64,000 nucleotides of DNA from an uncultured Bacteroidales bacterium. Lineage in GTDB: Bacteria > Bacteroidota > Bacteroidia > Bacteroidales > P3. The stretch lies in the NCBI GenBank assembly GCA_947167075.1, contig CAMVGR010000004.1:73597-137596 (forward strand). Direction: 5' to 3'. Position 1 is the stretch's first letter; each line of letters opens with the position of its first letter. A model generated the notes under the pieces. That model worked only from the letters and a program-made list of their open reading frames with translations, did not search any database and had not been told where the DNA came from. Shown here piece after piece: positions 11,284 through 54,458 of the stretch. A program made the translations under genes and the position numbers.

Positions 11284-12462
11284 TTATCTTAATTTCAGTG
11301 TTGATAGAGTGAAGATGGCGAGCAGGATAGCAATGATAATAAATCTCATTACCACCTTTTCTTCAGCTATCCCCTTTTTCTGGTAATGATGATGTAATGG
11401 GGACATCAGAAATGGCCTCTTTTCTATCGGAACTATTACTCCGTTCGGCAAGTGATGTTTACGACGATACCTTTTACAGGCAGTAGTCTGGATAATCACA
11501 GATAGATCCTCTACTAGATATATGCCACACAGAATGGGTAATAATAGTTCTTTTCGAATCAAGATGGCAAACACGGCGATGATACCTCCAATCGCCAGTG
11601 ATCCAGTGTCACCCATAAAGATCTCGGCTGGGTGAGTGTTGAACCATAGGAAACCAAGGGTTGCACCAACAAATGCTGTACTGAAGATGGCAAGTTCTCC
11701 TATGTTGGGTAGGTACATGATGTTCAAGTAGCCTGCCATGATGATATTGCCGCTGACCCATGCAAGTAGAGCTAATGCACCACCATTAACTGCAGCTACT
11801 CCTGTGGCAATTCCATCAATGCCGTCTGTTAAGTTCGATGCATTGCTCACCGCAGTGACAATCAGAACTATGACTGCCACGAACAATATCCATGCATATT
11901 TTTCAGCCCAGGGTCCCATCCAACTCACCAACCATGTATAGTCGAATTCATTGTTTTTTACAAATGGAATGGTGGTTTTTAAAGGAGATGGTATGTCGGG
12001 ATGGAATGTCAATAGAATACCTACAGCTAGTCCTAGTATCACCTGTCCCAATACTTTGTATTTCCCTGGCAGTCCAGCTTTGCTACGTGTCTTCTTAAGG
12101 TAGTCGTCCAAGAAACCAAGTAGGCCGAGCCATACTGTTGTGGCAAGCATAATCTGTATATATATGTTGTCCAATTTTGCAAACAGCAATGTTGGTACTA
12201 TTATGGCTGTTAAAATGAGTAGGCCACCCATTGTCGGTGTTTGGGCTTTCCGTGCAGCTCCTTCAAGCCCCAGCTCTGTTCGTACCTCGTCCATCACACC
12301 CAATTTGTTCTGCATCCAGCGAATGAAGGGTCGTCCCAGCAGGAGCATTATAAGCAGTGATGTCACCATACTGGCTGCTGACCTAAAGCTGATGTATTGA
12401 AACACGCCAGCCCCGGGCAAATTCATTGTTTTATCAAACCAGTCAAATAGATAATATAGCAT
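11284..12462 (-). CDS. mraY: Phospho-N-acetylmuramoyl-pentapeptide transferase MraY
   Basis: Polytopic protein with MraY motifs (NLTDGIDGIA, FMGDTGSLAIGG, PLHHH), in the expected dcw position. Confidence 0.93.
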   Translation of the reverse strand: MLYYLFDWFDKTMNLPGAGVFQYISFRSAASMVTSLLIMLLLGRPFIRWMQNKLGVMDEVRTELGLEGAARKAQTPTMGGLLILTAIIVPTLLFAKLDNIYIQIMLATTVWLGLLGFLDDYLKKTRSKAGLPGKYKVLGQVILGLAVGILLTFHPDIPSPLKTTIPFVKNNEFDYTWLVSWMGPWAEKYAWILFVAVIVLIVTAVSNASNLTDGIDGIATGVAAVNGGALALLAWVSGNIIMAGYLNIMYLPNIGELAIFSTAFVGATLGFLWFNTHPAEIFMGDTGSLAIGGIIAVFAILIRKELLLPILCGIYLVEDLSVIIQTTACKRYRRKHHLPNGVIVPIEKRPFLMSPLHHHYQKKGIAEEKVVMRFIIIAILLAIFTLSTLKLR

Positions 12463-12490
12463 TCCAATCCTCCTTTTGTTGTCTTGAGTT

Positions 12491-13942
12491 TTATTGTTTT
12501 TCGTTCAAAATCTTTCTCAACTCTTCTACATCGTCGAAGTGTGACCTTACTCCATTCACCTCTTGATAGGTTTCATGCCCTTTTCCTGCCACTAGAATGA
12601 TGTCTCCTTCGCGTGCCATCAATACAGCTGTACGGATAGCTTGATGCCGATCGGTGATTCGAACTACGTGCGACAGTTGCTGCGGTGTTAGTCCGGCCTC
12701 CATTTCATCCAATATCGATTCGGGTTTCTCAGTGCGTGGATTGTCGGATGTGAGTACGACTTTGTCGCTTCCCTCTACCGCTATTTGTGCCATCTCCGGA
12801 CGCTTGCTACGGTCGCGGTCACCTCCGCATCCAACCACTGTGATGAGTTGCTGTTGGGGACGTCGTATCTCGTCGATGGTTCCGATCACGTTCTGCAGAG
12901 CATCAGGGGTATGAGCATAGTCCACAATGGCTGTGATTGTCTTGCCTTGTACATACTGGAATCGACCAGGAGCAGGCTCTAGGTTACTTAAAATTTTGAG
13001 TACATTTTGTTTTTCTATGCCACATAGTACGGCGGCTCCATAGATGGCGGTCAGATTGTATGCGTTGAACCGCCCTACCAGTCTGCACCACAATTCTTGA
13101 CCATCCAGCTCCATGTGCATTCCGTCGAATGAATCTTCTATCACGCGGCAGTGGAAATCGGCTGTATGTTGCAGTGCATAAGTATATGTCTTGGCACGGC
13201 TGTTTTGCACCATTATGCGACCATTCCTGTCGTCTATATTGGTCAATGCCCATGCTTCTTTTGGTAAGCTGTTGAAGAAACCTTGTTTGGCAGCAATGTA
13301 TGCAGCCATTGTCTTGTGGAAATCCAAGTGGTCATGTGTGATGTTGCTGAAGATACCTCCTGCAAATGTAAGCCCGCTGATGCGATGCTGAACCACGGCG
13401 TGGCTGCTTACCTCCATGAATGCGTATCGACAACCTGCATCCACCATCTGTCGCAGCAGTTGGTTGAGTTCCAACGCATCAGGTGTGGTATGGCTGGTGG
13501 ATATTTCTTTCTCGTCTATTTTGTTGACGATAGTAGACACCAATCCTGTATGGAAGCCCAGTTCGCGGAACATGTGATGGAGTAGGGTGACAGTGGTCGT
13601 TTTGCCATTGGTGCCCGTAATGCCCACCAGCTTTAGTTGTTTTGACGGATGTTCATAGTAGTTGTCGGCAGCCATTCCCAGTGCCTCACTGCTGTCATTG
13701 ACGATCACGTACGTAACTCCGGCGACTGGCTCCACTGGCTCCTTCTCGCACATTATCGCTGTGGCCCCTGCTTCGATGGCTTTGGGAATAAATGTGTGCC
13801 CATCTACCTTGGTGCCACGTTGTGCCACAAAGAACGTGTCTTGCTTCACCTTACGCGAGTCGAACTGGATGTCGGCCACTTCGGTTTCTACACTTCCTAT
13901 TATCTTAGCATCGATGCCTTTTAATATATTCTTTAATTCCAT
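12491..13942 (-). CDS. murE: UDP-N-acetylmuramoyl-L-alanyl-D-glutamate--2,6-diaminopimelate ligase MurE
   Basis: Mur ligase P-loop (GITGTNGKTTT) and a DNPR motif (LTSDNPRTE), in the expected dcw position. Confidence 0.92.
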   Translation of the reverse strand: MELKNILKGIDAKIIGSVETEVADIQFDSRKVKQDTFFVAQRGTKVDGHTFIPKAIEAGATAIMCEKEPVEPVAGVTYVIVNDSSEALGMAADNYYEHPSKQLKLVGITGTNGKTTTVTLLHHMFRELGFHTGLVSTIVNKIDEKEISTSHTTPDALELNQLLRQMVDAGCRYAFMEVSSHAVVQHRISGLTFAGGIFSNITHDHLDFHKTMAAYIAAKQGFFNSLPKEAWALTNIDDRNGRIMVQNSRAKTYTYALQHTADFHCRVIEDSFDGMHMELDGQELWCRLVGRFNAYNLTAIYGAAVLCGIEKQNVLKILSNLEPAPGRFQYVQGKTITAIVDYAHTPDALQNVIGTIDEIRRPQQQLITVVGCGGDRDRSKRPEMAQIAVEGSDKVVLTSDNPRTEKPESILDEMEAGLTPQQLSHVVRITDRHQAIRTAVLMAREGDIILVAGKGHETYQEVNGVRSHFDDVEELRKILNEKQ

Positions 13943-13948
13943 GACAAT

Positions 13949-16228
13949 CTAGTGTTTAAGAGTGAGTACTACCCTCGATCCTTTTTTTGCTTTGGCCCCT
14001 GGTGCAGGTACTTGATTAAGCACTTTCCCATAGCCCTCCACACGGACACGATACCCCTGCGTGTGCAGCAACTCTACTGCGTCTTTTGCTGTCATCCCGT
14101 TGCAGTTTGGAACCACTCCCGCCGTTGGTATATATGGATAGTATTGTCCCACAGTGCTGGTCGAATCCTTCTTGTATACCACCCAGTGGGCGGACGAGTC
14201 GGCACTGTAGAATGGCTGTCGGAGCAGTTTGTACAGCCGCCGCATCTCGCTTTGGTCACCCCTTGCCACCACCGGACGTTGGTTTGCCTTCATGCTGTCC
14301 GCCTCCAGTTTAGGCCATACAGACTTCACGGCTCCATCGCTCAATCGTTTGTCTACGGCAACTACGCAGTCGGATATGTTCTTGAATACCTCTGCTGCTT
14401 GCCGTCCATAGAAAGGGATACGTTCCAACACCACCAAACAGGTGTAGCGGGGATTTTCCGATGGGAAGAATCCAGCAAACGAAGCGTTGTAGACATTTTT
14501 GCTGGCATAGTTGTGTACAGCCGTACCTGTCTTGCCTGCAATACCGTAGGTGTTGTTTTTGATATTATTGCCGGTGCCATTTTCCACCACCCCCTCGAGC
14601 ATCGTACGCATCATACGTGCACTCTCGCGGCTACACATGCGTGGGTTGAGAACAATAGGCTTGTTTTCTACTAATCGGTCACCATCCATCACCCCTTTGC
14701 AGAATATCGGCTTCACCATTCGCCCTTCGGCGGCTAGACCGTTGTAAAAGGTGAGCACCTGCAGCGGCGAAACCCATGTGGAGTAGCCATAGCAGAAGTT
14801 TAGGAAGTCGCGCTTCGAAGCGTGTAGGTTGTTGATGCGTGAGTTGTATTCGCGGGCTTTTACGTCGGGATTCAGTTTCTGGTATGGGAACATCTTCTCG
14901 ACAAGCATTCTCAGTGTGTCGCGTCGGTCGGCATAGAAATCCCACCCCAGATCGCTCATACCCGTATTCGACGACTGTTCGATAATCTCCCTCACATTGA
15001 GCGAGTCGCGCAGCCGCCCCTCCTCATCCCTAATCTGGTGATCGTCCTTAATAACACCGTATTTCCCCCCAAAGTCCTTCGAGCCGGCACGGTACATTTT
15101 CGCAGTGTCGATTTTGATGGAGGGGTCGTTGAGCATGGCTGTCAGTATGACTGTTTTGAAGGTGGAGCCTGGCTCGTACATATCGCTTACTGCCACATTT
15201 CTGTCGCGCACCTCCAGATAGTCGTGTGCCGAAGTGTCGATGGCTAGGTTGGCACAAGCTAGGATGTATCCCGTCTGCATTTCCATTAGTATGGCACACC
15301 CCGCCTCTCCGCCATATCGACGCAGGGCGTTGCGTAGCGAGCTTTCGGCTATGTCTTGGTAGCGTGTGTCGATGGTGCTCACTATGCTCCGTCCGTCCAC
15401 TTTCTCTTGCAGCATTATGGTATCTACCCGATCCATATCGGTGCGTACGGGCACTTCCCGTCGCCCGTGTTGCTCGTCGTCAAGCCAGATGCTCTTGGTG
15501 AGGCGTCGACAGCGCAGTTTTCCATCCTGCCCACGTAGCAGGCTGTCGTATGCACCCTCCAGCCCTGTGTAGGTAGAGCTTTCGCGACGGTTCTGGAATC
15601 CAATGGTGTTCTTGGCCATGTTGCCATAGATATGAGCACGCTCCTGGCGGATGACGCTTTGGCCATTCACCTGTCTCACCACTCCGCGTTTCCATCCAGG
15701 CAGGTGGGTAATCTGGAGCCAAACGCTGTAGGGGACATGCCGCTCCACTAGGAAGCAGCGGCGTGGTTTCTCCTTGGCCCGCTCAGACACTATCCGGTCG
15801 TGGTAGTAAGAGGCCGTGCGGTTTGGCATCGCCTCGGCAAGCATCACACATAGGCTATCTATATATAATGTAAAGTTACTATCTATTATAGGCCCGCTCT
15901 CGATGGCCCGCCCAGCCTTGTCGTATTTGGGGTGGCCGTGTTCGTCGAGTACTACGGTGTCCATCAGGTCGAGGTAGAGGTCGCATTCGGTCACATTGGT
16001 TGCCAATATCTTGCCATCGCTCGAGTAGATATTGCCGCGCCGTGCGGGATCGCTACGCACATCGTCCACACGTCTCTCCCCGCGGGCACGCCATTCGTCG
16101 CCATGCACCCATTGTATGTTGATGATGCCGCCCACGATGGCTGCACCCACCCCGAGTGTGAGTATCAGGTAGAGTGCGGTCATGCCGCGGGTCATGCGTC
16201 GGTCTTCGTTATGTTCGTCTTTCTTCAT
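13949..16228 (-). CDS. ftsI: Division-specific class B penicillin-binding protein (FtsI/PBP3-like) with a C-terminal PASTA-like domain
   Basis: Transpeptidase motifs STFK (EPGSTFKT), SSN and KTGT (AGKTGTA). I take the start at MKKDEHNEDRR (ATG 16228) before the TM segment. The ORF-track start at 16474 would overlap the ftsL-like gene. Confidence 0.88.
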   Translation of the reverse strand: MKKDEHNEDRRMTRGMTALYLILTLGVGAAIVGGIINIQWVHGDEWRARGERRVDDVRSDPARRGNIYSSDGKILATNVTECDLYLDLMDTVVLDEHGHPKYDKAGRAIESGPIIDSNFTLYIDSLCVMLAEAMPNRTASYYHDRIVSERAKEKPRRCFLVERHVPYSVWLQITHLPGWKRGVVRQVNGQSVIRQERAHIYGNMAKNTIGFQNRRESSTYTGLEGAYDSLLRGQDGKLRCRRLTKSIWLDDEQHGRREVPVRTDMDRVDTIMLQEKVDGRSIVSTIDTRYQDIAESSLRNALRRYGGEAGCAILMEMQTGYILACANLAIDTSAHDYLEVRDRNVAVSDMYEPGSTFKTVILTAMLNDPSIKIDTAKMYRAGSKDFGGKYGVIKDDHQIRDEEGRLRDSLNVREIIEQSSNTGMSDLGWDFYADRRDTLRMLVEKMFPYQKLNPDVKAREYNSRINNLHASKRDFLNFCYGYSTWVSPLQVLTFYNGLAAEGRMVKPIFCKGVMDGDRLVENKPIVLNPRMCSRESARMMRTMLEGVVENGTGNNIKNNTYGIAGKTGTAVHNYASKNVYNASFAGFFPSENPRYTCLVVLERIPFYGRQAAEVFKNISDCVVAVDKRLSDGAVKSVWPKLEADSMKANQRPVVARGDQSEMRRLYKLLRQPFYSADSSAHWVVYKKDSTSTVGQYYPYIPTAGVVPNCNGMTAKDAVELLHTQGYRVRVEGYGKVLNQVPAPGAKAKKGSRVVLTLKH

Positions 16229-16251
16229 CGCTCTTGTCCGTTGCTCCAGTC

Positions 16252-16713
16252 TTATTTCTCTATTTCGTACGGCGGGCCGCTCGTTATGCCTACTCCTGTC
16301 TCGCGAAGGTCCTCTGCTATTTGCGAGATTTTGACAGATTGCTGATACTGCTTCTGCATCTGTATGCGATGCTCTCGCAGATAGTTGATTCGCTCCTCGG
16401 TGGCAGCCTTTTCGCGGCTGAGGCTTTCCACCTTGTAGCGGTTGCCCACTATCAGCAGCAGATAGATGAGGCATAGTAGCACCAGCGGAATCTGTTTCAG
16501 AACCATCCTGTCGGCCAGCACGTCGCCGCCTAGCACCTTGCCCAATCCTCGGGCTGTCTGGCTTCCCTTGCTGTGTCGGTGCGGTTTATTCTCGTCCACC
16601 ATTGTCTGAGGCTCTTCCACATCGACGGGCGCGGCAGTCGCCGACGGAGTCTCCTCCTTCCGGGGTTCTTCCAGTCCTTCTTCCACTATTTTCTCTCTGA
16701 ATCTGTTGCCCAT
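16252..16713 (-). CDS. FtsL-like small bitopic division protein
   Basis: 153 aa with a single TM segment (IPLVLLCLIYLLLIVG) followed by a coiled-coil-like region. Its position between rsmH and ftsI matches ftsL. Confidence 0.65.
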   Translation of the reverse strand: MGNRFREKIVEEGLEEPRKEETPSATAAPVDVEEPQTMVDENKPHRHSKGSQTARGLGKVLGGDVLADRMVLKQIPLVLLCLIYLLLIVGNRYKVESLSREKAATEERINYLREHRIQMQKQYQQSVKISQIAEDLRETGVGITSGPPYEIEK

Positions 16714-16759
16714 GGTGTTTTTATGCTTACTTATTGTTGTTTTGTTTCCAATCTTGTAC

Positions 16760-17707
16760 CTACCTGTCGTTGCTGTCCGGTTTCGTTGCGGCTGTTGCTA
16801 TCCGCTCTGCCACCCGCAGTCTTGCGCTGCGGGCCCTGCTGTTGGATTCCACCTCGCTGTCCGAGGCTTGTTTCTTGGCTATTTGACGCAGGGGCGACAG
16901 CGGATTGCCATAGAAGTCTTTCTCCACCTCTCCGTCGAAGTTGCCGGCTCGCATGTAGTTCTTCACCAGCCTATCCTCGAGCGAGTGATAGCTGATCACT
17001 ACCAGTCGTCCGCCTTCGCGAAGTATCTGTGTGGCTTGTTGCAACATGTCGCGCAGGGCCTCCAACTCGCCGTTCACCTCGATGCGCAATGCCTGAAAGA
17101 GCATGGCCAGGTATTTGTTCTCCGCCCCACGAGGCAGATGGCGCTGCACCGCTGCACGCAGGTCGCCAGTGGTGACCAACTCCTCCCGCGTGCGGGCTTG
17201 CACTATGGCGTGGGCCATTTGGCGGGCGTTGGGTAGCTCTCCGTATAGCCGGAGCAGGCGGACCATGTCGTTTTCCTCCATGCTGTTCACCAGCTCGCGA
17301 GCTGATGTGGGAGCATGACGGTCCATCCGCATATCCAACTCGCCGTCCAGCCGAGTGGAGAATCCACGTTCGGCGGTGTCGAACTGATGGCTGCTTACAC
17401 CGAGGTCGGCCAGCAGGCCGTCCACGTGGTGCACTCCCTGCAGCCGCAGAAAAGCTTTCAAGTGGCGGAAGTTCTCCCCAATCAGTGTAAATCGTGGGTC
17501 GTCGATGGCGTTGCGCTGTGCATCCTCGTCCTGATCGAAGGCTATCAGTCGCCCCTCTGGGTTCAACCGTTCGAGAATGGCACGCGAGTGGCCGCCGCCA
17601 CCGAAGGTGACATCGACATAGATGCCCGACGGATTGATATTCAGCCCGTCCAGCACCTCGGTGAGCATCACCGGTACGTGATAACTATTCTCACTGCTTG
17701 CTGTCAT
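16760..17707 (-). CDS. rsmH: 16S rRNA (cytosine1402-N4)-methyltransferase RsmH (MraW)
   Basis: YHVPVMLTEVL and DVTFGGGGHS motifs. I chose the start at MTASSENSYHVPVML (ATG 17707). It is the second gene of the dcw cluster. Confidence 0.92.
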   Translation of the reverse strand: MTASSENSYHVPVMLTEVLDGLNINPSGIYVDVTFGGGGHSRAILERLNPEGRLIAFDQDEDAQRNAIDDPRFTLIGENFRHLKAFLRLQGVHHVDGLLADLGVSSHQFDTAERGFSTRLDGELDMRMDRHAPTSARELVNSMEENDMVRLLRLYGELPNARQMAHAIVQARTREELVTTGDLRAAVQRHLPRGAENKYLAMLFQALRIEVNGELEALRDMLQQATQILREGGRLVVISYHSLEDRLVKNYMRAGNFDGEVEKDFYGNPLSPLRQIAKKQASDSEVESNSRARSARLRVAERIATAATKPDSNDR

Positions 17708-18158
17708 CGTCGACCGACATTGAGCCCAGCAGCTGTTCTGCACGTTGTGCATAGTCGCCGCCAGTCTGGTTCATCTTGTCGTAGGCCTGACGATCCCATA
17801 GCTCGATGAACTTGCCAGTCGATTGCAGTACCAGCTCTTTTGCCTTCGCTACCGTTGCCTTTTGCTCTGCCGGTATCAGCAAGCGATCGTTCGAATCGAG
17901 TTCGATGATGTTGCCCTCGGTCAGTTTGCGTAGCAAATCGCGATCCTCGCGACGGTAGGGGTTGAGCCGCTCTTGGAGTTTCTCCACTTCTTCCCTGAAA
18001 CTGGCATAGGTCCACAGCTCCAAACACTCGGCATAGACACTCTGGCGAATCACAAAACGTCCGTCCTCCGTCTCCAGTTGCCTCTTCAGGGCAATTGGAA
18101 ACTTGAACCGACCGTTCGAATCGACCTTACAGTATTCTTTTCCAAGTATTAACGCCAT
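17691..18158 (-). CDS. mraZ: Transcriptional regulator MraZ
   Basis: 155 aa with duplicated SpoVT/AbrB-like halves (DSNGRFKFP ... DSNDRLLIP). It is the first gene of the dcw cluster. Confidence 0.9.
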   Translation of the reverse strand: MALILGKEYCKVDSNGRFKFPIALKRQLETEDGRFVIRQSVYAECLELWTYASFREEVEKLQERLNPYRREDRDLLRKLTEGNIIELDSNDRLLIPAEQKATVAKAKELVLQSTGKFIELWDRQAYDKMNQTGGDYAQRAEQLLGSMSVDDDSKQ

Positions 18159-18661: not shown

Positions 18662-18792
18662 GTGATTGCCGTGTGCCGACACGGACCTTTGGCGGAGTAT
18701 CCACCCTGTATATACTTCGGATCCTGCCTTGTGGGGCAACGCAAAGAGTGTCGTCGTTTGAAAAAAAATTTTGTCAGTTTCAAAATTATGTG

Positions 18793-18800
18793 TATTTTTG
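18793..18800 (+). promoter_or_regulatory. -7 promoter box (TATTTTTG) for 18882..20438
   Basis: Matches TAnnTTTG, 82 nt upstream of the ATG at 18882. Confidence 0.55.
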
Positions 18801-18881
18801 CATCGTCGAAGTAATGTCAAAAGTACATCTGCTCGACATAAAAAACATGTTTGTAAACGTATTAACCTAATCCTATACACT

Positions 18882-20438
18882 ATGAAAAAGTTAGCATTAA
18901 TAACGATAGCAGTGATCTATGGCTTGGGGCAATTGCAGCTACAGGCCCAGACCGACACGACGCACTATGGCGATTCGTGGATATGGGTTGAGCCCTTGGA
19001 CAGCAAAGTGGGGAAGATGGTAACTAAATGCAAAGACTCAACTATCTATGGGCATTGGGACACCGTTACAAATCCGTGGGAGAAATGGATTATCGATTCT
19101 ATTGTCTACTTTAGAAATATCTACAACAATATTTATGGCACACTTTGCAGTCCTAATTATGGATTCCCATATAGTGATACCGTCTCACAGACGATATATG
19201 GCATAGCGATTCCGATGCTGGTGTATGACCTAGACACCGACTGGTATTGGAAATATTGGAAAGAAACACAACATATTGATGAAAAAAATGTATGTGGCCG
19301 TAGAGAGGGCGACAGTGGCATTTGGGCAGGTATAACAAAGCCTGTAAAAACAATCAATGAACGCAACGAAAAAATCTATGTGTTTGAGGAATCGGTACGA
19401 TTGGGACCTAAGATGCTGACCGACGAGATAGATAAACTCATCGGCGGAACGGGTCAACTCCGCCGCACCTGTTTTATGTACGATTACGACACCACAGAGC
19501 CAGAAATGTATCGTCACGACACGGTGGAACTGCTCGAAATGTATTTCGACAAGCCCTACGAATACAAGGCAGGAGACACCATCTACGCATCCTACTTGCA
19601 TAATTACCCTGCAGGATACGATCTTGCAACGAGAATTATTTTCCCCTTTGTTGCAGATCATCCTAAATTAAAGACTAGCAAGTATAAGAATAAAAGACAA
19701 GTAGGGGCGAGTGGGTATGGTGGATTAAATGGTGAAGAGATCGATATAAGTGTTACCGACGATACTCTCTATGGTGGAAACCCAGGAACTACAGAAACAC
19801 CTCAAACTTTCCCCATAATAAAGTTGCGCTGCAGCACGCCGAGGGATTGGAGCATGACGACGGCGGCGGACTCGGCGGTGCTGACATGGCAGCACTTCGA
19901 CGGGGCCGAGGGCTACGAGCTGATGGTGAACAACATCACCCAGTGCGACAGCTCGGTGCTCCTCATCAGCGACCCCGACGCTGTGCAGCACACCCTGCAG
20001 GGGCTGGACAGCAACAGCTACTACCACGTGCGGCTGCGTAAGCTATGCCGCTATGCCACACCCACCTACGACACCATCGTGCCTAGCGACTGGACCGAGG
20101 TGTTCACCATCGGCAATCCCACTCCCCCCTGCGACACCACCGACACCACCATTGTAGACACCACCATCGTGGATACCACCGGCATACACCTAGCCGGCAG
20201 CCTGCGCCTCGAGCTGCAGCCCAACCCCGCCAGCGACATGGTGGAGCTGACGCTGGATGCCCCCGACGGAGGCCGGCTGACGCTGACCGACCTGGCAGGC
20301 CGCGAAGTGCTGCAGATGGCCATCCCCGCCCCGACCACCACCCTGCACCTCGACATCCACGCACTGCCCGCCGGAGCCTACCTGCTGAAGGTATCTACCC
20401 CCACCGGCACCGCCACCCGCAGGCTGCTGGTGCAGTGA
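18882..20438 (+). CDS. T9SS-secreted protein of unknown function (signal peptide, FN3-like module, C-terminal T9SS sorting domain)
   Basis: I take the start at MKKLALITIAVIYGLGQLQLQAQ (ATG 18882) rather than the ORF-track 18771. The C-terminus (LQPNPASDMVELTL...LPAGAYLLKVSTPTGTATRRLLVQ) is a typical Por/T9SS CTD. It contains a short DTTIVDTTIVDTT repeat. Confidence 0.8.
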   Translation: MKKLALITIAVIYGLGQLQLQAQTDTTHYGDSWIWVEPLDSKVGKMVTKCKDSTIYGHWDTVTNPWEKWIIDSIVYFRNIYNNIYGTLCSPNYGFPYSDTVSQTIYGIAIPMLVYDLDTDWYWKYWKETQHIDEKNVCGRREGDSGIWAGITKPVKTINERNEKIYVFEESVRLGPKMLTDEIDKLIGGTGQLRRTCFMYDYDTTEPEMYRHDTVELLEMYFDKPYEYKAGDTIYASYLHNYPAGYDLATRIIFPFVADHPKLKTSKYKNKRQVGASGYGGLNGEEIDISVTDDTLYGGNPGTTETPQTFPIIKLRCSTPRDWSMTTAADSAVLTWQHFDGAEGYELMVNNITQCDSSVLLISDPDAVQHTLQGLDSNSYYHVRLRKLCRYATPTYDTIVPSDWTEVFTIGNPTPPCDTTDTTIVDTTIVDTTGIHLAGSLRLELQPNPASDMVELTLDAPDGGRLTLTDLAGREVLQMAIPAPTTTLHLDIHALPAGAYLLKVSTPTGTATRRLLVQ

Positions 20439-20634: not shown

Positions 20635-22785
20635 ATGAAAATTCGTACATTAGTGATTGCAATGGCCCTTATGGTGTTGGCTCCGAACGTGTCACGCGCC
20701 GACGAGGGTATGTGGCTTCTTTCCTTGATTGGGAAGAACTACGACGACATGAAACGTGCCGGTTTCCAACTGACACCCGAAGACATCTACAGTGTGAACC
20801 AAAGTTGCTTAAAGGATGCTATCGTTGGACTGGGACGAGCCGGTAGCCCCTTCTGGCATTTCTGCACGGGTGAGATTATCTCCAGTCAGGGACTGGTGAG
20901 CACCAACCATCACTGTGGCTATGGCTATCTGCAGAGCCACTCGACAGTGGAACACGACTATCTGCGCGATGGCTTCTGGGCATACACCAAGGAGCAAGAG
21001 TTGGCCAACCCAGGCCTCACAGCGTCTATCTTGGTCCGTATGGAAGATGTGACGGCTCGCGTCACCGAGAACCTCAGCGACGATATGAGCGAGGCCGACC
21101 GTGCCAAGGCTGTGGCCAAAGTGTGTAAGATTATCGAAGAAGAGGCTGTGGAGGGAACACAGTACAATGCCCAAGTAAAACCTATGTTTAACGGCAACCA
21201 GTATTTCCTGTTTGTCCATATTATCTACCGCGATGTCCGACTGGTGGGTGCACCTCCCTCATCGATGGGTAAATTCGGTGGCGATACCGACAACTGGTCG
21301 TGGCCGCGCCACACTTGCGATTTCTCGCTGTTCCGTATCTATACCGCCCCCGACGGAAGTCCTGCCGACTACGATCGCGACAATGTGCCCTTGCAACCCA
21401 AACGCCACCTGAAAGTGAACGCTGGAGAAATCAACGACGGCGACTTCGCAATGGTAATGGGATTCCCTGGCACCACCGACCGTTTCCTCACTAGCTATGG
21501 CCTGGAAGAGACGATGGATATTACCAACAAGTTGGTGTACGAACTCCGCACTGTAAAGATCAACATTCTCCGCGAGGAAATGGCCGCAGACCAGGCTATC
21601 CGTATCAAATATGCCTCCAAGTATGCCTCCTGCTCCAACTACTGGAAATATAGCAATGAGCAAAATAAAGCCTTGCGTACACTGAACACGATGGAACTGA
21701 AACGTCAGGTGGAACAAGACTACAGCCAATGGGCTCGCTATCAGCGTGCGTTCAAATACAACGAAGCACTGGATATGATTCGCAAGGGCTATGCCGACCG
21801 TCGTGATGTGCGCCGGGCTCAGATTTATTTGGGCGAAGGCTTGATCAGTGGTAGCGAGGCTATGCAGACTGCAGCATCGATTGGAACGGCTGTAGAATAC
21901 TATCCTGACAGAGATATTAGTGCTTACGGTGGATATATCAGCAATTTCTACAAAGACTATGACGAAAATGTGGATAAGCGTGTGGCTGCTGCCATGTTTG
22001 CACATGTGTATGCACATATGAGCCCCGAGTATTGCCCTGAATTCTTGGTGAAAGCCAATAAGAAGTACAAAGGCAACTGGACAAAATACGTGGATGCCCT
22101 TTATAAAGGCAGTGTCTTTGCCAATCAGGAGAAGTGGAATAAATTCATGGAGAAGCCCGATATGAAGAAACTGGCCAAGGATCCGCTTGTGGTGCTGGGT
22201 AAAGAGGTGAACGCTCTGTCGATGCAGTTGAGCAGCCAGGTGCCTACTGAAAGCAAAGAGAACCTGCAGAGAGGCATCCGCAACTTCACAGACGGTATCT
22301 TGCAGATCAATCAAGGCAAACGCCTAATGGCTCCGGATGCCAACTCGACTATTCGTCTCACCTATGGCAATGTGATGAGCTATGATCCTCAGGATGGTGT
22401 CAGCTATCACTACTACACCACCATGGATGGTGTCATCAAGAAAGAAGACCCAGACAATGCCGAATTCAATGTGCCCGAACGTCTGAAGAAACTATATAAA
22501 GAGAAGCAGTTCGGTAACTATACCAACCGGAAGGGAGAAATGCCTGTATGCTTCATTACCAATAACGACATCACTGGTGGTAACAGTGGCTCGCCGGTGA
22601 TTAATGCAAAGGGTGTGCTTATCGGACTTGCATTCGATGGCAATAGTGAGGCCATGAGTGGCGATATCGACTTCGAAGAGAACCTACAGCGTTGCATCTG
22701 CTTAGACAGCCGATATATGCTTTGGGTTATTGATGTGTATGCCGAAGCCAAGAACCTCATCGCCGAAATGGATATTGTCCGTTAA
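20635..22785 (+). CDS. S46-family dipeptidyl-peptidase, DPP7-type
   Basis: Signal peptide followed by the ADEGMWL hallmark, and catalytic GGNSGSPV. The residue 18 positions after the catalytic Ser is Gly (..AFDGN..). From memory, P. gingivalis DPP7 has Gly there and DPP11 has Arg. Confidence 0.88.
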   Translation: MKIRTLVIAMALMVLAPNVSRADEGMWLLSLIGKNYDDMKRAGFQLTPEDIYSVNQSCLKDAIVGLGRAGSPFWHFCTGEIISSQGLVSTNHHCGYGYLQSHSTVEHDYLRDGFWAYTKEQELANPGLTASILVRMEDVTARVTENLSDDMSEADRAKAVAKVCKIIEEEAVEGTQYNAQVKPMFNGNQYFLFVHIIYRDVRLVGAPPSSMGKFGGDTDNWSWPRHTCDFSLFRIYTAPDGSPADYDRDNVPLQPKRHLKVNAGEINDGDFAMVMGFPGTTDRFLTSYGLEETMDITNKLVYELRTVKINILREEMAADQAIRIKYASKYASCSNYWKYSNEQNKALRTLNTMELKRQVEQDYSQWARYQRAFKYNEALDMIRKGYADRRDVRRAQIYLGEGLISGSEAMQTAASIGTAVEYYPDRDISAYGGYISNFYKDYDENVDKRVAAAMFAHVYAHMSPEYCPEFLVKANKKYKGNWTKYVDALYKGSVFANQEKWNKFMEKPDMKKLAKDPLVVLGKEVNALSMQLSSQVPTESKENLQRGIRNFTDGILQINQGKRLMAPDANSTIRLTYGNVMSYDPQDGVSYHYYTTMDGVIKKEDPDNAEFNVPERLKKLYKEKQFGNYTNRKGEMPVCFITNNDITGGNSGSPVINAKGVLIGLAFDGNSEAMSGDIDFEENLQRCICLDSRYMLWVIDVYAEAKNLIAEMDIVR

Positions 22786-22793
22786 AGAATAGA

Positions 22794-25067
22794 ATGAAAC
22801 AAATTCAGCGACAGCAACTGCAGCAGAAGCTATCGCCTCAGCAAATACAGCTGATGCGATTGCTGCAGTTGCCTGTCACTGAGCTGGAAAAAGCTATCAA
22901 GGAGGAGATTGAAAAGAATCCCCTCCTTGATGCTGAAATCCAGGAGGAAAAACTGCTCCCACAAGAGAGTGGCAATCAGCAAGAGTGGGATGCTGATGAG
23001 GATGACGAGATGGGGTACGACTACAGGGAACACCTAGAAAGAGACCCCAATTATGTCAATCGTGAATATATTGTTAGTGATAGTACATCAGCAACAGAGA
23101 GGCTATTTCAGCAGTTGCACTTAAGGCAACTGTCAGAAAGACAACAACTAATCGCTACAGAAATAATAGGGACACTGGATGACTCGGGCTATTTGAGTCG
23201 AGACTTGACACTAATAGCCAACGACCTTGCATTCCGTCAAGGAATAGAGGCTACGGTGGAAGAGGTGGAAGAGGTGCTACATATAGTGCAGACGTTTGAC
23301 CCTCCGGGAGTGGGTGCCCGTAATTTGCGTGAATGCTTGCTATTGCAGTTGCAGCGGATGGATGAAAAGGAATATCCTTCGTTGGAGGTGGCGAGGAGAA
23401 TCATTAGAGATCATTTCAATGATTTTGCAGAACATCGCTATACACAGATATGCGATGCGATGCAGATAGATGAATCAACCTTAAAAGCAGCCACTCTTCT
23501 TATACGCCGCCTCAACCCTAAGCCTGCTGGCTCTACCGATGATGATAGTGAAACTGCAACAACTATAATCCCCGATATAATTCTCTCTCAGAATGAAGGT
23601 CAGTTGCAGTTCTATCTCAACGACCCCCACCTGCCACAACTAACTCTGAATGAATTCTACGTCAATATGCTGCATGAGCTGGAAAGTGCCAGGGGAGATA
23701 AAGAAGCAATCCGCTTTCTGCGTAATAATCAAAGCAATGCCCAGCAGTTTATCGATCTGCTACAACAAAGACATGACACCATCGTCCGTGTTATGCGATA
23801 TATTGTCAAACACCAGCGACAATACCTGCTGACAGGCAATCCCAACCTACTAAAACCTATGCGCCAGCGAGAAGTGGCAGAAGCAACGAACCTTGATATT
23901 AGCACTGTCTCGCGAATGGCAAACAGCAAATATATCCAGACAGACTTTGGAACTATACCTCTGAAGAATTGTTTTGCCAAAGGCATGGCAACCGATGAGG
24001 GTACAGAAATGTCGGTTGAAACAATAAAGCAACACATTTCAAATATTATCGAGACTGAAAACAAACAGGCTCCGCTTTCCGATGATGCACTTACAAAGCT
24101 GCTGAATAATCAGGGTATCCCTGTGGCACGTCGCACGGTGGCTAAATACCGAGAAATGCTGGGTATTCCTATCGCTAGACTAAGAAGGATCCTCTGTCTT
24201 ATACTTGTCCTTTCGCTTGGGACTCATCTTATGGCACAGCAATCGTACTATGATTCCATCATATCCGTTCGACTGGAGAAAGCAGACCGTGAGATGAAAA
24301 TGCAGAAGAAAAAGACCCCAGCAAGACAGGAAGCATTGCCACTGCGTTCGCCTACAGGATTGGATAATCAGAAGGAGCAAATACAGGTAAACAAAAAGAA
24401 TGTTGCTGCTATGCAGCATATTGTACCGCTTTGGTATGATGCTTTCCCTAGTCATCGTGTCAATCCTGGTGGTAAAACTGACTTGGGCCAAATGCCGGAT
24501 GAGATCAATATCCTGCTAATCCGAGACAGCGCGGATTTCTGTTTCCCTGTCGGCGGAATAAAAAGCAGTCCGTATGGATGGAGATGGCAACGTGGACATC
24601 ACGGGGTAGATATTTCGCTACGTTCCGGCGACCCTGTCCATGCTGCATTTGGTGGCACAGTGCGAGTAGCATCTCGTATGGGAGGGTATGGCAACTGTGT
24701 TGTTGTTCGCCATCCCAATGGGTTGGAGACTTTGTACGGCCACTTGTCAAAGATTAATGTGACTACAGGCCAAGATGTCTCGGCAGGAGAAGTGATAGGA
24801 TTGGGCGGTTCGACTGGTAATAGCACTGGCCCACACCTGCATTTCGAATGTAGATTTCTTTACCAGACATTTGACCCAGAATGGATTCTCGACTTTTCTA
24901 CAAGAAGTCTTCGCACTCGCAGGTTGCATTTAGACAAGAGCTATTTTGGGATACGTAAGCCGGAAAAAGGCGAACGAGTGGATTATAGAGCAGATAAAAG
25001 CATCATACATGAGAGCAAAAAGAGACCTAAAAACCAACTCCCTACAATAAATATACAAGACTTTTAA
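22794..25067 (+). CDS. rpoN: RNA polymerase sigma-54 (RpoN) reading in frame, without a stop, into a signal-peptide/TM segment and an M23 (LytM-type) metallopeptidase
   Basis: Residues 1 to about 465 are RpoN: the Gln-rich N-terminus (LSPQQIQLMRLLQLP) and the RpoN box (ARRTVAKYREMLGIPIARLRR). The frame continues directly into ILCLILVLSLGTHLMAQQ and then M23 motifs (HHGVDI...GSTGNSTGPHLHFE). An in-frame ATG at 24156 (MLGIPIARLRRILCLILVLSLG...) could start a separate 303-aa peptidase precursor (24156..25067). Confidence 0.75.
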   Translation: MKQIQRQQLQQKLSPQQIQLMRLLQLPVTELEKAIKEEIEKNPLLDAEIQEEKLLPQESGNQQEWDADEDDEMGYDYREHLERDPNYVNREYIVSDSTSATERLFQQLHLRQLSERQQLIATEIIGTLDDSGYLSRDLTLIANDLAFRQGIEATVEEVEEVLHIVQTFDPPGVGARNLRECLLLQLQRMDEKEYPSLEVARRIIRDHFNDFAEHRYTQICDAMQIDESTLKAATLLIRRLNPKPAGSTDDDSETATTIIPDIILSQNEGQLQFYLNDPHLPQLTLNEFYVNMLHELESARGDKEAIRFLRNNQSNAQQFIDLLQQRHDTIVRVMRYIVKHQRQYLLTGNPNLLKPMRQREVAEATNLDISTVSRMANSKYIQTDFGTIPLKNCFAKGMATDEGTEMSVETIKQHISNIIETENKQAPLSDDALTKLLNNQGIPVARRTVAKYREMLGIPIARLRRILCLILVLSLGTHLMAQQSYYDSIISVRLEKADREMKMQKKKTPARQEALPLRSPTGLDNQKEQIQVNKKNVAAMQHIVPLWYDAFPSHRVNPGGKTDLGQMPDEINILLIRDSADFCFPVGGIKSSPYGWRWQRGHHGVDISLRSGDPVHAAFGGTVRVASRMGGYGNCVVVRHPNGLETLYGHLSKINVTTGQDVSAGEVIGLGGSTGNSTGPHLHFECRFLYQTFDPEWILDFSTRSLRTRRLHLDKSYFGIRKPEKGERVDYRADKSIIHESKKRPKNQLPTINIQDF

Positions 25068-25070
25068 TAT

Positions 25071-25562
25071 ATGAAGAAGACCAACCTCTCTGAATACGAT
25101 TCTACGCAGATACCTAATGGAAGCCCATGGACGATCGCTGTGGTGGCGGCTGAATGGAATCCAGAAGTGACAGATGCTATGCTACAGGGTGCTATTGATA
25201 CCCTTCTGGAACATGGTTTGAAGAAAGAGAACCTTATTGTCCACCGTGTTCCCGGTACGTATGAATTGTCTTATGCAGCAAGTATGCTTGCTGGAAATAA
25301 GCGTATCGATGCAGTCATTTGCATCGGCTGTGTGATACAGGGGGAAACACGTCATTTCGAATTTATCTGCCAAGCGGTGTCCCAAGGTCTTACCAATGTA
25401 TCGCTCGCCACCCATAAGCCGATTATCTTCAGTGTCCTTACCACCAATACCATGGAGCAAGCCATGGAGCGTGCTGGTGGAAGGCATGGCAACAAAGGGG
25501 TAGAAGGAGCTGTGACTGCTTTGAAAATGCTGCAATTCACTGAAAAAGCAAAACAGGTGTGA
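25071..25562 (+). CDS. ribH: 6,7-dimethyl-8-ribityllumazine synthase
   Basis: 163 aa with typical RibH length and motifs (VPGTYELS, GCVIQGETRHFEFI). Confidence 0.9.
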   Translation: MKKTNLSEYDSTQIPNGSPWTIAVVAAEWNPEVTDAMLQGAIDTLLEHGLKKENLIVHRVPGTYELSYAASMLAGNKRIDAVICIGCVIQGETRHFEFICQAVSQGLTNVSLATHKPIIFSVLTTNTMEQAMERAGGRHGNKGVEGAVTALKMLQFTEKAKQV

Positions 25563-26497
25563 AAGTAGTTTTTTTTGGTACCCCCGATTTCGCGGTTGAG
25601 AGTTTGGATGCAATCAACCGTAGTTCACACCAAGTTGTGGCTGTGGTTACGGTCTCCGACAAACCGGCAGGACGTGGACAAAAGATGATTTCAAGTGCGG
25701 TCAAGGAGTATGCTATGGCTCATCAACTCCCACTAATGCAGCCTGAAAAGCTTCGCGACCCCATGTTTCTAGGTGCATTGGAGGCACTCCGGGCCGACTG
25801 CTTCGTGGTGGTGGCATTCCGAATGCTGCCGGAAGTGGTGTGGAATCTCCCCCCGAAAGGAACATTCAACCTGCATGCGTCACTTCTGCCACGCTATCGA
25901 GGTGCTGCTCCTATCAATTGGGCAATCATCAATGGCGAATCGGAGACAGGTGTCACTACATTTATGCTGAATCATAAGATCGATGAAGGTCAGGTATTGA
26001 TGCAGGAGCGAACCCCAATAGCAGCCGACGAGACGGCTGGAAGTCTGCACGACCGTCTCTCCATGATGGGTCGCGAACTTGTAGTACGCACTCTGGATGG
26101 TTTGCAGGACGGTACACTTGTTCCATACCCACAGGTGGGCGACAGTTGCGCCGCTCCAAAGATATTCAAGGACGACACCAAGATACCCTTCGGTCGACTT
26201 TCTGCCAAGGAGGTAGAACGCATGGTGCGGGGACTATCTCCGTATCCCGCAGCCACCATGTCTTTGGTAAATCCACAAGGCACGGAGGTGCCATTCAAAG
26301 TGTTCAAGTGCATGGCTACAGAGGAGAAGTGTACAGGTGATGAAACATTGAAAACCGATGGAAAAAGATGGTTAAAAATCGCAGCAAACGACTGTTTTAT
26401 CGAGGTTTTAGAGCTCCAAATGGCTGGAAAAAAGAAAAATAATATCGAAGATTTTCTTCGAGGAAATTCTTTAAGTGGTTGGAAATTAATGATATAG
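25559..26497 (+). CDS. fmt: Methionyl-tRNA formyltransferase
   Basis: GTG start overlapping the ribH stop (GTGTGA). Motifs VVFFGTPDFAV, NLHASLLPRYRGAAPI. Confidence 0.9.
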   Translation: MKVVFFGTPDFAVESLDAINRSSHQVVAVVTVSDKPAGRGQKMISSAVKEYAMAHQLPLMQPEKLRDPMFLGALEALRADCFVVVAFRMLPEVVWNLPPKGTFNLHASLLPRYRGAAPINWAIINGESETGVTTFMLNHKIDEGQVLMQERTPIAADETAGSLHDRLSMMGRELVVRTLDGLQDGTLVPYPQVGDSCAAPKIFKDDTKIPFGRLSAKEVERMVRGLSPYPAATMSLVNPQGTEVPFKVFKCMATEEKCTGDETLKTDGKRWLKIAANDCFIEVLELQMAGKKKNNIEDFLRGNSLSGWKLMI

Positions 26498-26563
26498 AGG
26501 AGCTGCAAGGAAAAAAATGAAAAAAAATGAAAAAAAATTTGGTGAAAATCAAAAAAAAAGTAT

Positions 26564-26571
26564 TACATTTG
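26564..26571 (+). promoter_or_regulatory. -7 promoter box (TACATTTG) for the HU gene, preceded by phased A-tracts
   Basis: Matches TAnnTTTG, 48 nt upstream of the ATG at 26619. A-runs begin at about 26511, 26520, 26530, 26545 and 26551. Confidence 0.55.
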
Positions 26572-26618
26572 CAGCGTAAAATTAAATAGTTAATTTTTAA
26601 CCCCTTAAATATAACCCA

Positions 26619-26903
26619 ATGAACAAAACAGAACTTGTTAATGCGATTGCCGCTAAAACCGGCATGACCAAGGTTGCTGCTAAAAATGCAGCTAATGCTT
26701 TCATGGCTACCGTCCAGGAGCAATTGAACAAAGGTGAGAGAGTTGCTCTCGTAGGCTTTGGCACTTTCAACGTCGTAGAGCGTAAAGCCCGCACCGCAAA
26801 GAACCCGATGACTGGCAAGCCCATCAAGGTCCCCGCCAAGAAGGTCGCGAAGTTCAAACCCGGTTCTACCCTGATTGCTCAAAAGAAGACCAGAAAGAAA
26901 TAA
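26619..26903 (+). CDS. hup: HU-family DNA-binding protein
   Basis: 94 aa; MNKTELVNAIA...GFGTF...RTAKNPMTGKPIKVPAKK is a typical HU/IHF fold signature. Confidence 0.92.
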   Translation: MNKTELVNAIAAKTGMTKVAAKNAANAFMATVQEQLNKGERVALVGFGTFNVVERKARTAKNPMTGKPIKVPAKKVAKFKPGSTLIAQKKTRKK

Positions 26904-50510: not shown

Positions 50511-50584
<74 letters not shown>

Positions 50585-54383: not shown

Positions 54384-54458
54384 TGGTCTGTGGGAGATTC
54401 GAACTCTCGACCTCTTCCGTGTGAAGGAAGCGCTCTAAACCAACTGAGCTAACAGACC
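54384..54458 (-). tRNA. tRNA-Val (anticodon CAC)
   Basis: I folded the cloverleaf by hand from the reverse complement: acceptor GGTCTGT/ACAGACC, D-arm GCTC-AGTTGGTTTA-GAGC, anticodon loop TTCACAC, T-loop TTCGAAT. There is one A-C mismatch in the T-stem. 75 nt. Confidence 0.88.

Follow-up and report, generated by a model that had tools for sequence, protein, structure and literature searches.

Here, we describe an open reading frame (ORF) in which the gene of the sigma factor sigma-54, rpoN, continues in frame and without a stop codon into an export signal and an M23 peptidase. It is located in a window of 64,000 nucleotides (nt) from an uncultured Bacteroidales bacterium (contig CAMVGR010000004.1, positions 73,597 to 137,596 of the forward strand), and all coordinates given below are those of this window. 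That the fusion is genuine and is translated as one chain is, in our view, practically certain; because ribosomes that start at the rpoN ATG meet no stop until all 757 codons are read, they inevitably produce the fused chain. The hydrophobic segment at the junction has, judged by its residues, the form of a Bacteroidota type-I signal peptide, and it is likely that this segment is cleaved as a signal peptide and that the peptidase is exported. Sigma-54 must accordingly be synthesised as a precursor, and would probably be cut free at the membrane.

The ORF is composed of the following elements, all on the forward (+) strand:

22794 to 25067 (+): the complete ORF, consisting of sigma-54, the internal signal peptide and the M23 peptidase, with an ATG start and 757 codons plus stop.
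22794 to 24188 (+): sigma-54 (RpoN) moiety, residues 1-465, as delimited by Pfam and TIGR02395.
24126 to 24155 (+): RpoN box ARRTVAKYRE, residues 445-454, invariant in 59 aligned fusions.
24156 to 24158 (+): in-frame ATG (M455), put forward as an internal start by an initial annotation of this DNA; not conserved.
24180 to 24188 (+): L463-R464-R465, the normal end of RpoN, which doubles as the positively charged n-region of the putative signal peptide.
24189 to 24236 (+): hydrophobic core and c-region ILCLILVLSLGTHLMA, residues 466-481, followed by QQSYYDS.
24236/24237 (+): predicted signal peptidase I site A481/Q482, with the A(-1)/Q(+1) pattern of 128 fusions.
24237 to 24428 (+): predicted mature N-terminus (QQSYYDSIISVRLE..., a helix) and a poorly conserved linker rich in Lys, Pro and Ala, residues 482-545.
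24594 to 24878 (+): Peptidase_M23 domain, residues 601-695 (PF01551, 4.6e-32).
24879 to 25064 (+): conserved C-terminal tail of the peptidase (FDPEWILDF ... LHLDKSYFGIR ... YKADKS).

The initial annotation, which was made from the sequence of the window, had reported a single 757-codon ORF in which rpoN lacks its stop codon and runs into a signal-peptide or transmembrane segment and an M23 peptidase. This is borne out by the ORF itself, by Pfam and by the NCBIfam equivalog TIGR02395 (rpoN_sigma), whose whole profile (1-434) is matched with 414 bits against a cut-off of 277. The three sigma-54 domains are all present, namely the activator-interacting domain of Region I (Sigma54_AID, PF00309; residues 2-46, 4.8e-13), the core-binding domain (Sigma54_CBD, PF04963; residues 92-289, 9.2e-56) and the DNA-binding domain (Sigma54_DBD, PF04552; residues 308-465, covering profile positions 3-159 of 160). 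The end of the RpoN moiety, ARRTVAKYREMLGIPIARLRR, lies at 24126-24188 and the in-frame ATG at 24156, where they had been placed. When the DNA is read directly, no stop codon is present in the former stretch, and the ORF extends 292 residues past the usual end of RpoN. Homologues do normally end within a few codons of the RpoN box, as had been stated: in about 65 unfused Bacteroidota and related loci among the matches listed, rpoN ends 0-5 residues after ARLRK, typically with ARLRKEL and the stop codon.

The absence of a stop codon is reproduced in independent data. Logan contigs of four independent public runs (X1, X2, X4 and X6), which comprise gut and sheep-gut metagenomes as well as one coded organism, cover positions 24000-24400 with zero insertions or deletions, and the four contig sets agree over the junction, where both a stop codon and an indel are absent. 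Furthermore, the identical protein of 757 amino acids (aa) is encoded on an independent ENA metagenome contig with matching neighbours. Searches with the whole protein gave at least 120 best-matching protein clusters with 63-98% identity and a length of 723-781 aa, all of them with the four Pfam domains. Among 50%-identity representatives, a search with the C-terminal 292 residues added at least seven fused proteins with lengths of 760-839 aa (P0123 to P0127, P0129 and P0141).

On the DNA level, metagenome contigs were scanned by pattern for the peptidase motif FDPEWILDF and 120 loci were taken. The junction is open and the genes are fused in 75 of these loci, 26 are truncated on the 5' side and the remaining 19 unfused, which means that the orthologues are not uniformly two genes separated by a stop codon, the situation that the initial annotation had regarded as speaking against a fusion. 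Two apparently unfused loci inside fused clades (L187 and L198) have only 84-91 nt of unrelated upstream sequence at a contig end and were treated as uninformative, and L086 is a frameshifted copy of an unfused orthologue. The samples with fused loci are largely ruminant and other herbivore gut metagenomes. A collection of genomes was scanned as a sample only, its counts being those of the matches listed; here the fusion-bearing GTDB species representative is the rumen metagenome-assembled genome RUG377.

Within 58 distinct fused genes, the ratio of nonsynonymous to synonymous substitution rates (dN/dS) is 0.32 for sigma-54, 0.15 for the M23 domain, 0.51 for the signal segment and 0.70 for the linker, values that are upper bounds since synonymous sites are saturated (dS about 1). 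Both halves of the fusion are under purifying selection. On the RNA level, both halves are represented among metatranscriptome contigs, and one contig of 237 nt (X25; 23998-24234) spans the junction.

In the peptidase half, the zinc and catalytic motifs of M23 are intact. The zinc and catalytic residues H602 and D606 (HxxxD), H650, and H681 and H683 (HxH) are invariant in the 59 aligned fusions. The closest solved structures are periplasmic peptidoglycan peptidases, the Neisseria enzymes 6muk/3slu (6.6e-26), TagE and ShyA, and a peptidoglycan-binding LysM domain is found at the end of the more distant fused forms and of the unfused orthologues. Because the M23 residues are invariant, the structural relatives are periplasmic and LysM occurs in distant fusions, the peptidase half must, as far as its sequence tells, act outside the cytoplasm.

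The segment between both halves follows a fixed pattern. In 128 fused sequences the RpoN box is followed by about 10 residues, RLR(R/K), a stretch of 15-21 residues (mostly 16-17) and then A/Q. The residue at position -1 is Ala in 122 of the 128 fusions and Ser, Thr or Gly in the remaining six, and position +1 is Gln in every one of them, followed by (x)SYYDSII. The hydrophobic core in between, about 11-14 residues long, is free to vary (consensus frequency 0.54) while the A/Q pair is fixed. After the cut site SYYDS is near-invariant, and the consensus frequency of the linker is 0.34. It is this combination of a fixed A/Q at -1/+1 and a variable core that argues for a type-I signal peptide.

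In Bacteroidota, most substrates of signal peptidase I expose an N-terminal Gln, which is cyclised to pyroglutamate, known as the Q-rule (PMC5837995, PMC10653852). The window itself contains an example, since the N-terminal signal peptide of the ORF at 38648-41407 (-) ends with ...LSMA/QTS. The segment of the fusion carries every sequence element of a Q-rule signal peptide, namely a basic n-region, a hydrophobic core, a small residue at -1 and Gln at +1. Only its position deviates: a signal peptide is expected at the N-terminus, and this one begins at residue 464 of 757.

The stand-alone orthologues of the peptidase point in the same direction. In P0128, L085, L192 and L202, N-terminal signal peptides are present whose A/Q or G/Q pair aligns with the A/Q of the fusions; in one of them, MEKRLFIFFSLLMSLSMFSYA precedes QKD.... 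Where the fusion has the basic end of RpoN, a stand-alone orthologue reads MEKR. The basic end of RpoN thus appears to replace the M-x-K/R n-region of the signal peptide of the peptidase.

The residue pair directly in front of the core (24183-24188) is RR in 61 of 67 distinct fused junctions, and unfused RpoN proteins mostly have RLRK here. The switch from RLRK to RR may reinforce the positive-inside signal. That the RR pair is a twin-arginine (Tat) motif seems unlikely, given the very hydrophobic core.

Taken together, we favour with moderate confidence a polyprotein that is split by signal peptidase, a reading in which the route of sigma-54 release is left open. Ribosomes starting at 22794 would make the whole of sigma-54, which would fold and remain in the cytoplasm. 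The emerging residues 464-481 would then engage the signal recognition particle (SRP) and Sec as an N-in signal sequence, and the C-terminal 276 residues would be translocated. Cleavage by signal peptidase I between A481 and Q482 would free a soluble periplasmic peptidase, the N-terminal Gln of which would be cyclised to pyroglutamate as in other exported proteins of Bacteroidota. Sigma-54 would retain a hydrophobic C-terminal tail of 16 residues, located in the inner membrane. This tail would be too short for a stable anchor and would most likely be clipped by an RseP-type site-2 protease or by SppA, yielding a sigma-54 of almost normal form. In the simplest case, sigma-54 would afterwards be set free constitutively by such housekeeping clearance, a view that we hold tentatively, at slightly less than an even chance. 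As a consequence of this model, sigma-54 and the peptidase would be produced in a fixed 1:1 ratio, and each sigma-54 molecule would go through a membrane-bound stage.

Every single step of such a route has been described for other proteins. RsiV and RsiP, two anti-sigma factors of N-in/C-out topology, are cut by signal peptidase before a site-2 protease acts on them (PMC4183432, PMC8844934). In E. coli, RseP removes remnant signal peptides (PMC8144685), and Prc together with RseP sets free IutY, a sigma/anti-sigma fusion (PMC8999054).

Several points weigh against the polyprotein reading. The cut at A481/Q482, the secretion of the peptidase and what becomes of the sigma-54 tail have been deduced from sequence. 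We also know of no natural bacterial protein in which a cleaved signal peptide lies behind a folded cytoplasmic domain of 465 residues. An in-frame ATG is present at 24156, so internal initiation is possible in the organism of the window, and all but 2 of the 67 junctions hold GTG or TTG codons. The RNA evidence is thin, since it consists of Logan contigs from low-depth metatranscriptomes of which one spans the junction, and 5' ends are unreadable from such contigs. The AlphaFold2 (AF2) model of the full protein, calculated from 59 sequences, is of low overall confidence (predicted template modelling score, pTM, 0.33) and silent on processing; in this model the core-binding and DNA-binding domains have a predicted local distance difference test (pLDDT) of 80-90, a single long helix spans residues 458-503, and the M23 domain is not confidently packed against sigma-54. 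Finally, a second, ordinary rpoN may be encoded elsewhere in the genome; the search for such a copy and for a GAFTGA activator gene covered the 64-kb window, in which neither was found.

Among the other explanations, a regulated release of sigma-54 survives best. Here, sigma-54 would be a membrane-gated factor, born tethered by the spent signal peptide of the hydrolase and transcriptionally silent until a site-2 protease, under regulation, cuts it within the membrane, or else the signal peptidase step itself would be gated by the condition of the peptidase domain or of the cell wall. The architecture does parallel anti-sigma factors and the IutY fusion, which are freed by regulated proteolysis, and in RsiV the signal peptidase step itself is regulated (PMC4183432, PMC6066255). 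Immediately behind the cut site, the fused clade has a conserved helix of amphipathic appearance (SYYDSIIxxRLE), and the fusion was kept through saturating divergence and arose twice. However, the sequence bears no mark of a regulated step, and the segment resembles an ordinary constitutive signal peptide of the same form as in the unfused orthologues. SYYDS is likewise found in the stand-alone P0128, L085 and L192 and is therefore not an adaptation to the fusion. We regard regulated release as unlikely. If true, it would be the first control of a sigma-54 by regulated proteolysis, and the protein would be the first polyprotein of a bacterial cell that signal peptidase divides into a regulator in the cytoplasm and an enzyme in the periplasm; the sigma-54 regulon would be coupled to the status of the envelope, responding to Sec traffic or cell-wall state.

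The second explanation is that the peptidase is mostly produced from a start within the last rpoN codons, here the ATG at 24156, and that the fusion is a tolerated by-product. Initiation at this ATG would give MLGIPIARLRR-ILCL..., which is a plausible signal peptide; some nearby in-frame ATG is present in 37 of the 67 junctions, and an ATG, GTG or TTG in 65 of them. Furthermore, the unfused neighbours are tightly coupled in translation, some with non-ATG starts. Nevertheless, no position of a start codon is conserved. The Met of the ATG at 24156 is kept in 20 of the 67 junctions and replaced by Gln in 37, and 30 have no in-frame ATG at all between the RpoN box and the hydrophobic core. GTG codons at the Val of IPVARLRR (37 of 57) are no commoner than at the Val within the RpoN box (53 of 67).

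The base composition gives the same picture. The 30 nt in front of the core contain 71% guanine plus cytosine (GC) and 10% A, in contrast to 41% GC and 37% A in the 30 nt before the rpoN start, and the junction is the more GC-rich of both regions in 58 of 58 loci. By this measure, the sequence before the core is unlike the start regions of these genomes. A conserved internal start codon as a general feature is ruled out by the codon table of the 67 junctions together with the base composition, and separate translation from 24156, which the initial annotation had offered as its second reading, does not hold as a general mechanism. The fusion persists in any case, every sigma-54 chain continuing into the peptidase without a stop codon. 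Internal initiation as the main source of the peptidase is therefore improbable.

According to the third explanation, the segment is an uncleaved signal-anchor that keeps the 85-kDa protein permanently in the inner membrane, with sigma-54 inside and working at the membrane and the peptidase outside. This reading has in its favour that the RLRR before the core obeys the positive-inside rule, that membrane-bound DNA-binding regulators are known in general and that the cleavage is itself read from the residues around the site. On the contrary, a core of about 11-14 residues is signal-peptide-like and short for a stable span, the segment as a whole being too short for a comfortable permanent transmembrane helix, and an uncleaved anchor offers no reason for the strict A(-1) and Q(+1). 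In addition, the RpoN box, which contacts DNA, lies just about 10 residues from the membrane core, so promoter DNA and RNA polymerase would be pressed against the bilayer. Because only 15-21 residues separate the RR pair from the Ala at -1, and because +1 is always Gln, the permanently tethered protein is not the likeliest end state, and we consider it quite improbable. Of the membrane-tethered fusion that had been proposed first in the initial annotation, the fusion has stood, being conserved, under purifying selection and of at least two origins, and the tether is less likely, since the segment looks cleavable.

The last explanation, that the missing stop codon reflects faulty sequencing or assembly, or else a mutation that recently inactivated the gene, has nothing in its favour apart from the lone P0141 fusion resting on a single contig, and with four agreeing assemblies without indels, hundreds of divergent fused sequences (at least 120 fused clusters) and selection on both halves its probability is close to nil.

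A stop codon was lost only in the sense of an ancient event that became fixed. The TAA in a shifted frame, to which the initial annotation had drawn attention in this context, is peculiar to this genome; it is located at 24181-24183 instead of 24179-24181 and arises from CTA-AGA codons, where most homologues have CTG-CGC. A programmed frameshift onto this TAA was rejected, as the TAA is not conserved and the RNA fold of 24100-24260 is unremarkable (z = -0.88). Simple scans for an internal promoter or terminator at the junction returned merely weak consensus matches near background.

The origin of the fusion can be traced in the relatives, in which the same genes occur separately. In L202 and L203 the order is rpoN (477 aa), a membrane protein of 208 aa, M23-LysM and ribH, with ribH directly following the unfused M23 gene in L202. 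The order rpoN, membrane protein and M23 is also present in L085, L096, L129, L134 and L148. In one clade without the membrane protein the peptidase gene adjoins rpoN, with an ATGA overlap in L093. L082 is one substitution short of a fusion, having a TGA in the same frame, two codons and then an ATG, and in L194, L102, L111 and L114 the peptidase ORF opens within a few nucleotides of the rpoN stop. In relatives, ribH, fmt and an HU-like gene occur in this order behind unfused as well as independently fused M23 genes, and the window keeps it downstream of the fused ORF:

25071 to 25562 (+): ribH.
25559 to 26497 (+): fmt, overlapping ribH by 4 nt.
26619 to 26903 (+): HU-like gene.

Comparison of these loci shows, as the ancestral order, rpoN, a membrane protein of about 200 aa, M23(-LysM) and ribH. 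With the loss of the middle gene, the peptidase gene came to adjoin rpoN, and then the stop codon of rpoN and the start codon of the peptidase vanished.

The same join has arisen at least two times. A neighbour-joining tree built from the last 300 residues of RpoN places 71 fused sequences in a single clade, and a group of four (P0125 type) adjoins this main clade along with one unfused locus. In a tree of the M23 domain, fused and unfused clades are interleaved. P0141 (locus L204) is a single contig in which rpoN is joined to M23-LysM at ...ARLRK/GFFLALFLFIFNFISFG/QKN... and which is flanked by ribH-fmt-HU. Its nearest RpoN relatives, about 60 clusters with 63-65% identity, are all unfused and 455-480 aa long. 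The join of P0141 does not resemble an error, as it corresponds to an apparently clean in-frame loss of about 700 nt which puts the core right after RLRK. Because P0141 is fused while its closest RpoN relatives are not, it represents a separate fusion event at the same point. As fusion events, the neighbour-joining trees point to an old one, to the P0125 group and to P0141 as a singleton. The fusion of the main clade is old and stably inherited.

The middle gene of the unfused loci encodes a conserved multi-pass membrane protein of about 200 aa with an N-terminal (F/S)HPLLMP-like motif and without a Pfam match. It is the usual gene right after rpoN across Bacteroidota (L085, L096, L129, L134, L148, L202 and many of L004-L081).

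In four unfused loci (L102, L111, L114 and L150), no ATG is found before the signal-peptide core of the peptidase. The peptidase probably starts at a TTG here, 10-30 nt from the rpoN stop, which suggests termination-reinitiation coupling to rpoN in a lineage that stayed unfused.

Sigma-54 is regarded as a free cytoplasmic protein that is controlled only via AAA+ activators. The fusion protein has the same three full-length domains and the RpoN box in common with canonical sigma-54. In contrast to the latter, which stops 0-5 residues after ARLRK, it continues for 292 residues into an export signal and a periplasmic enzyme. Full-text literature searches found no description of a sigma-54-peptidase fusion, of a membrane or exported extension of sigma-54 or of a proteolytic maturation of sigma-54.

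The nearest architectural parallels are the fused extracytoplasmic function (ECF) sigma factors, such as IutY of Pseudomonas putida, which is released by Prc and the site-2 protease RseP (PMC8999054, PMC5826349). Like the rpoN-M23 fusion, these proteins (IutY; ECF48, ECF52 and ECF53, for example SCO4117) combine a cytoplasmic sigma factor, one membrane segment and a domain outside. However, they belong to the sigma-70 family and carry an anti-sigma or sensor extension behind a true transmembrane helix, whereas the protein described here is a sigma-54 with a cleavable-looking joint and an ordinary cell-wall hydrolase that is encoded separately in relatives. Regions 2 and 4 of the sigma-70 family are absent from the fusion protein, in which Pfam and NCBIfam found only sigma-54 domains.

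In the case of RsiV and RsiP, as in the processing proposed here, signal peptidase I cuts an N-in/C-out protein with a cytoplasmic N-terminal domain and an intramembrane protease (the site-2 protease RasP) clears the stub. There, the membrane protein is an inhibitor of the sigma factor and the cut is gated by a ligand; in the fusion the sigma factor itself carries the segment, and no control by a ligand is evident. The pro-sigma-K and pro-sigma-E of Bacillus subtilis are membrane-associated precursors that are activated by proteolysis, in the case of pro-sigma-K by a site-2 protease. Unlike the fusion, these members of the sigma-70 family carry a pro-sequence at the N-terminus and lack an exported partner.

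With respect to the peptidase, the periplasmic M23/LytM enzymes (NMB0315/NGO1686 of Neisseria as in 3slu and 6muk, ShyA, MepM, TagE and Csd3) share HxxxD, HxH and an export signal with the fusion, and LysM with its relatives. Their signal peptide, in contrast to that of the fusion, is N-terminal on a stand-alone protein.

An internal signal peptide within a polyprotein is best known from viruses. In flaviviruses, host signal peptidase, acting beyond the membrane, splits capsid-prM, and the cytosolic protein is held by the spent signal until a second cut. The likeness to the fusion lies in the internal signal peptide of a polyprotein, although capsid-prM belongs to a eukaryotic virus and is processed at the membrane of the endoplasmic reticulum. 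To our knowledge, no cellular bacterial polyprotein is known that gives rise both to a transcription factor in the cytoplasm and to an enzyme in the periplasm.

For this gut and rumen lineage of Bacteroidales, the fused gene would yield sigma-54 only as the front half of a precursor, the back half of which crosses the membrane. If the processing takes place as proposed, ordinary secretion enzymes of bacteria can resolve a natural polyprotein, a gene fusion can stand in for a translation start where, as in this phylum, ribosome-binding signals are weak, and a global sigma factor can be coupled to a cell-wall hydrolase in a 1:1 ratio. There is also a consequence for annotation, since public records call the fusions of 720-840 aa just "RNA polymerase factor sigma-54", a label that gives no hint of the peptidase or the signal peptide.

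The fused ORF is part of a tightly packed run of genes on the same strand (20635-26903, +). A gene for an S46 dipeptidyl-peptidase ends at 22785, 8 nt upstream of the rpoN ATG, and the fused ORF itself ends at 25067, 3 nt upstream of ribH. In front of this run, a large ORF at 18771-20438 (+) encodes a secreted protein with a C-terminal sorting domain of type-IX secretion according to Pfam. The ORF at 38648-41407 (-), 919 aa in length, resembles cargo of type-IX secretion. Within this ORF lies the single perfect match of the window to TGGCAC-N5-TTGCT, the -24/-12 type of sigma-54 promoters (39695-39710, -), which is probably coincidental, as 0.17 matches per window are expected by chance.

The sole Rfam matches in the window are tRNA genes at 50511-50584 (+) and 54384-54458 (-). 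About 5 kb upstream of the fused ORF and on the opposite strand, part of a cell-division and cell-wall cluster is found (11284-17752, -), with rsmH/mraW (16760-17752), a Mur ligase (12491-13942) and an FtsI-type penicillin-binding protein (13949-16474) among its members. The latter has a C-terminal PASTA domain, which is seemingly unusual for a penicillin-binding protein of Bacteroidales.

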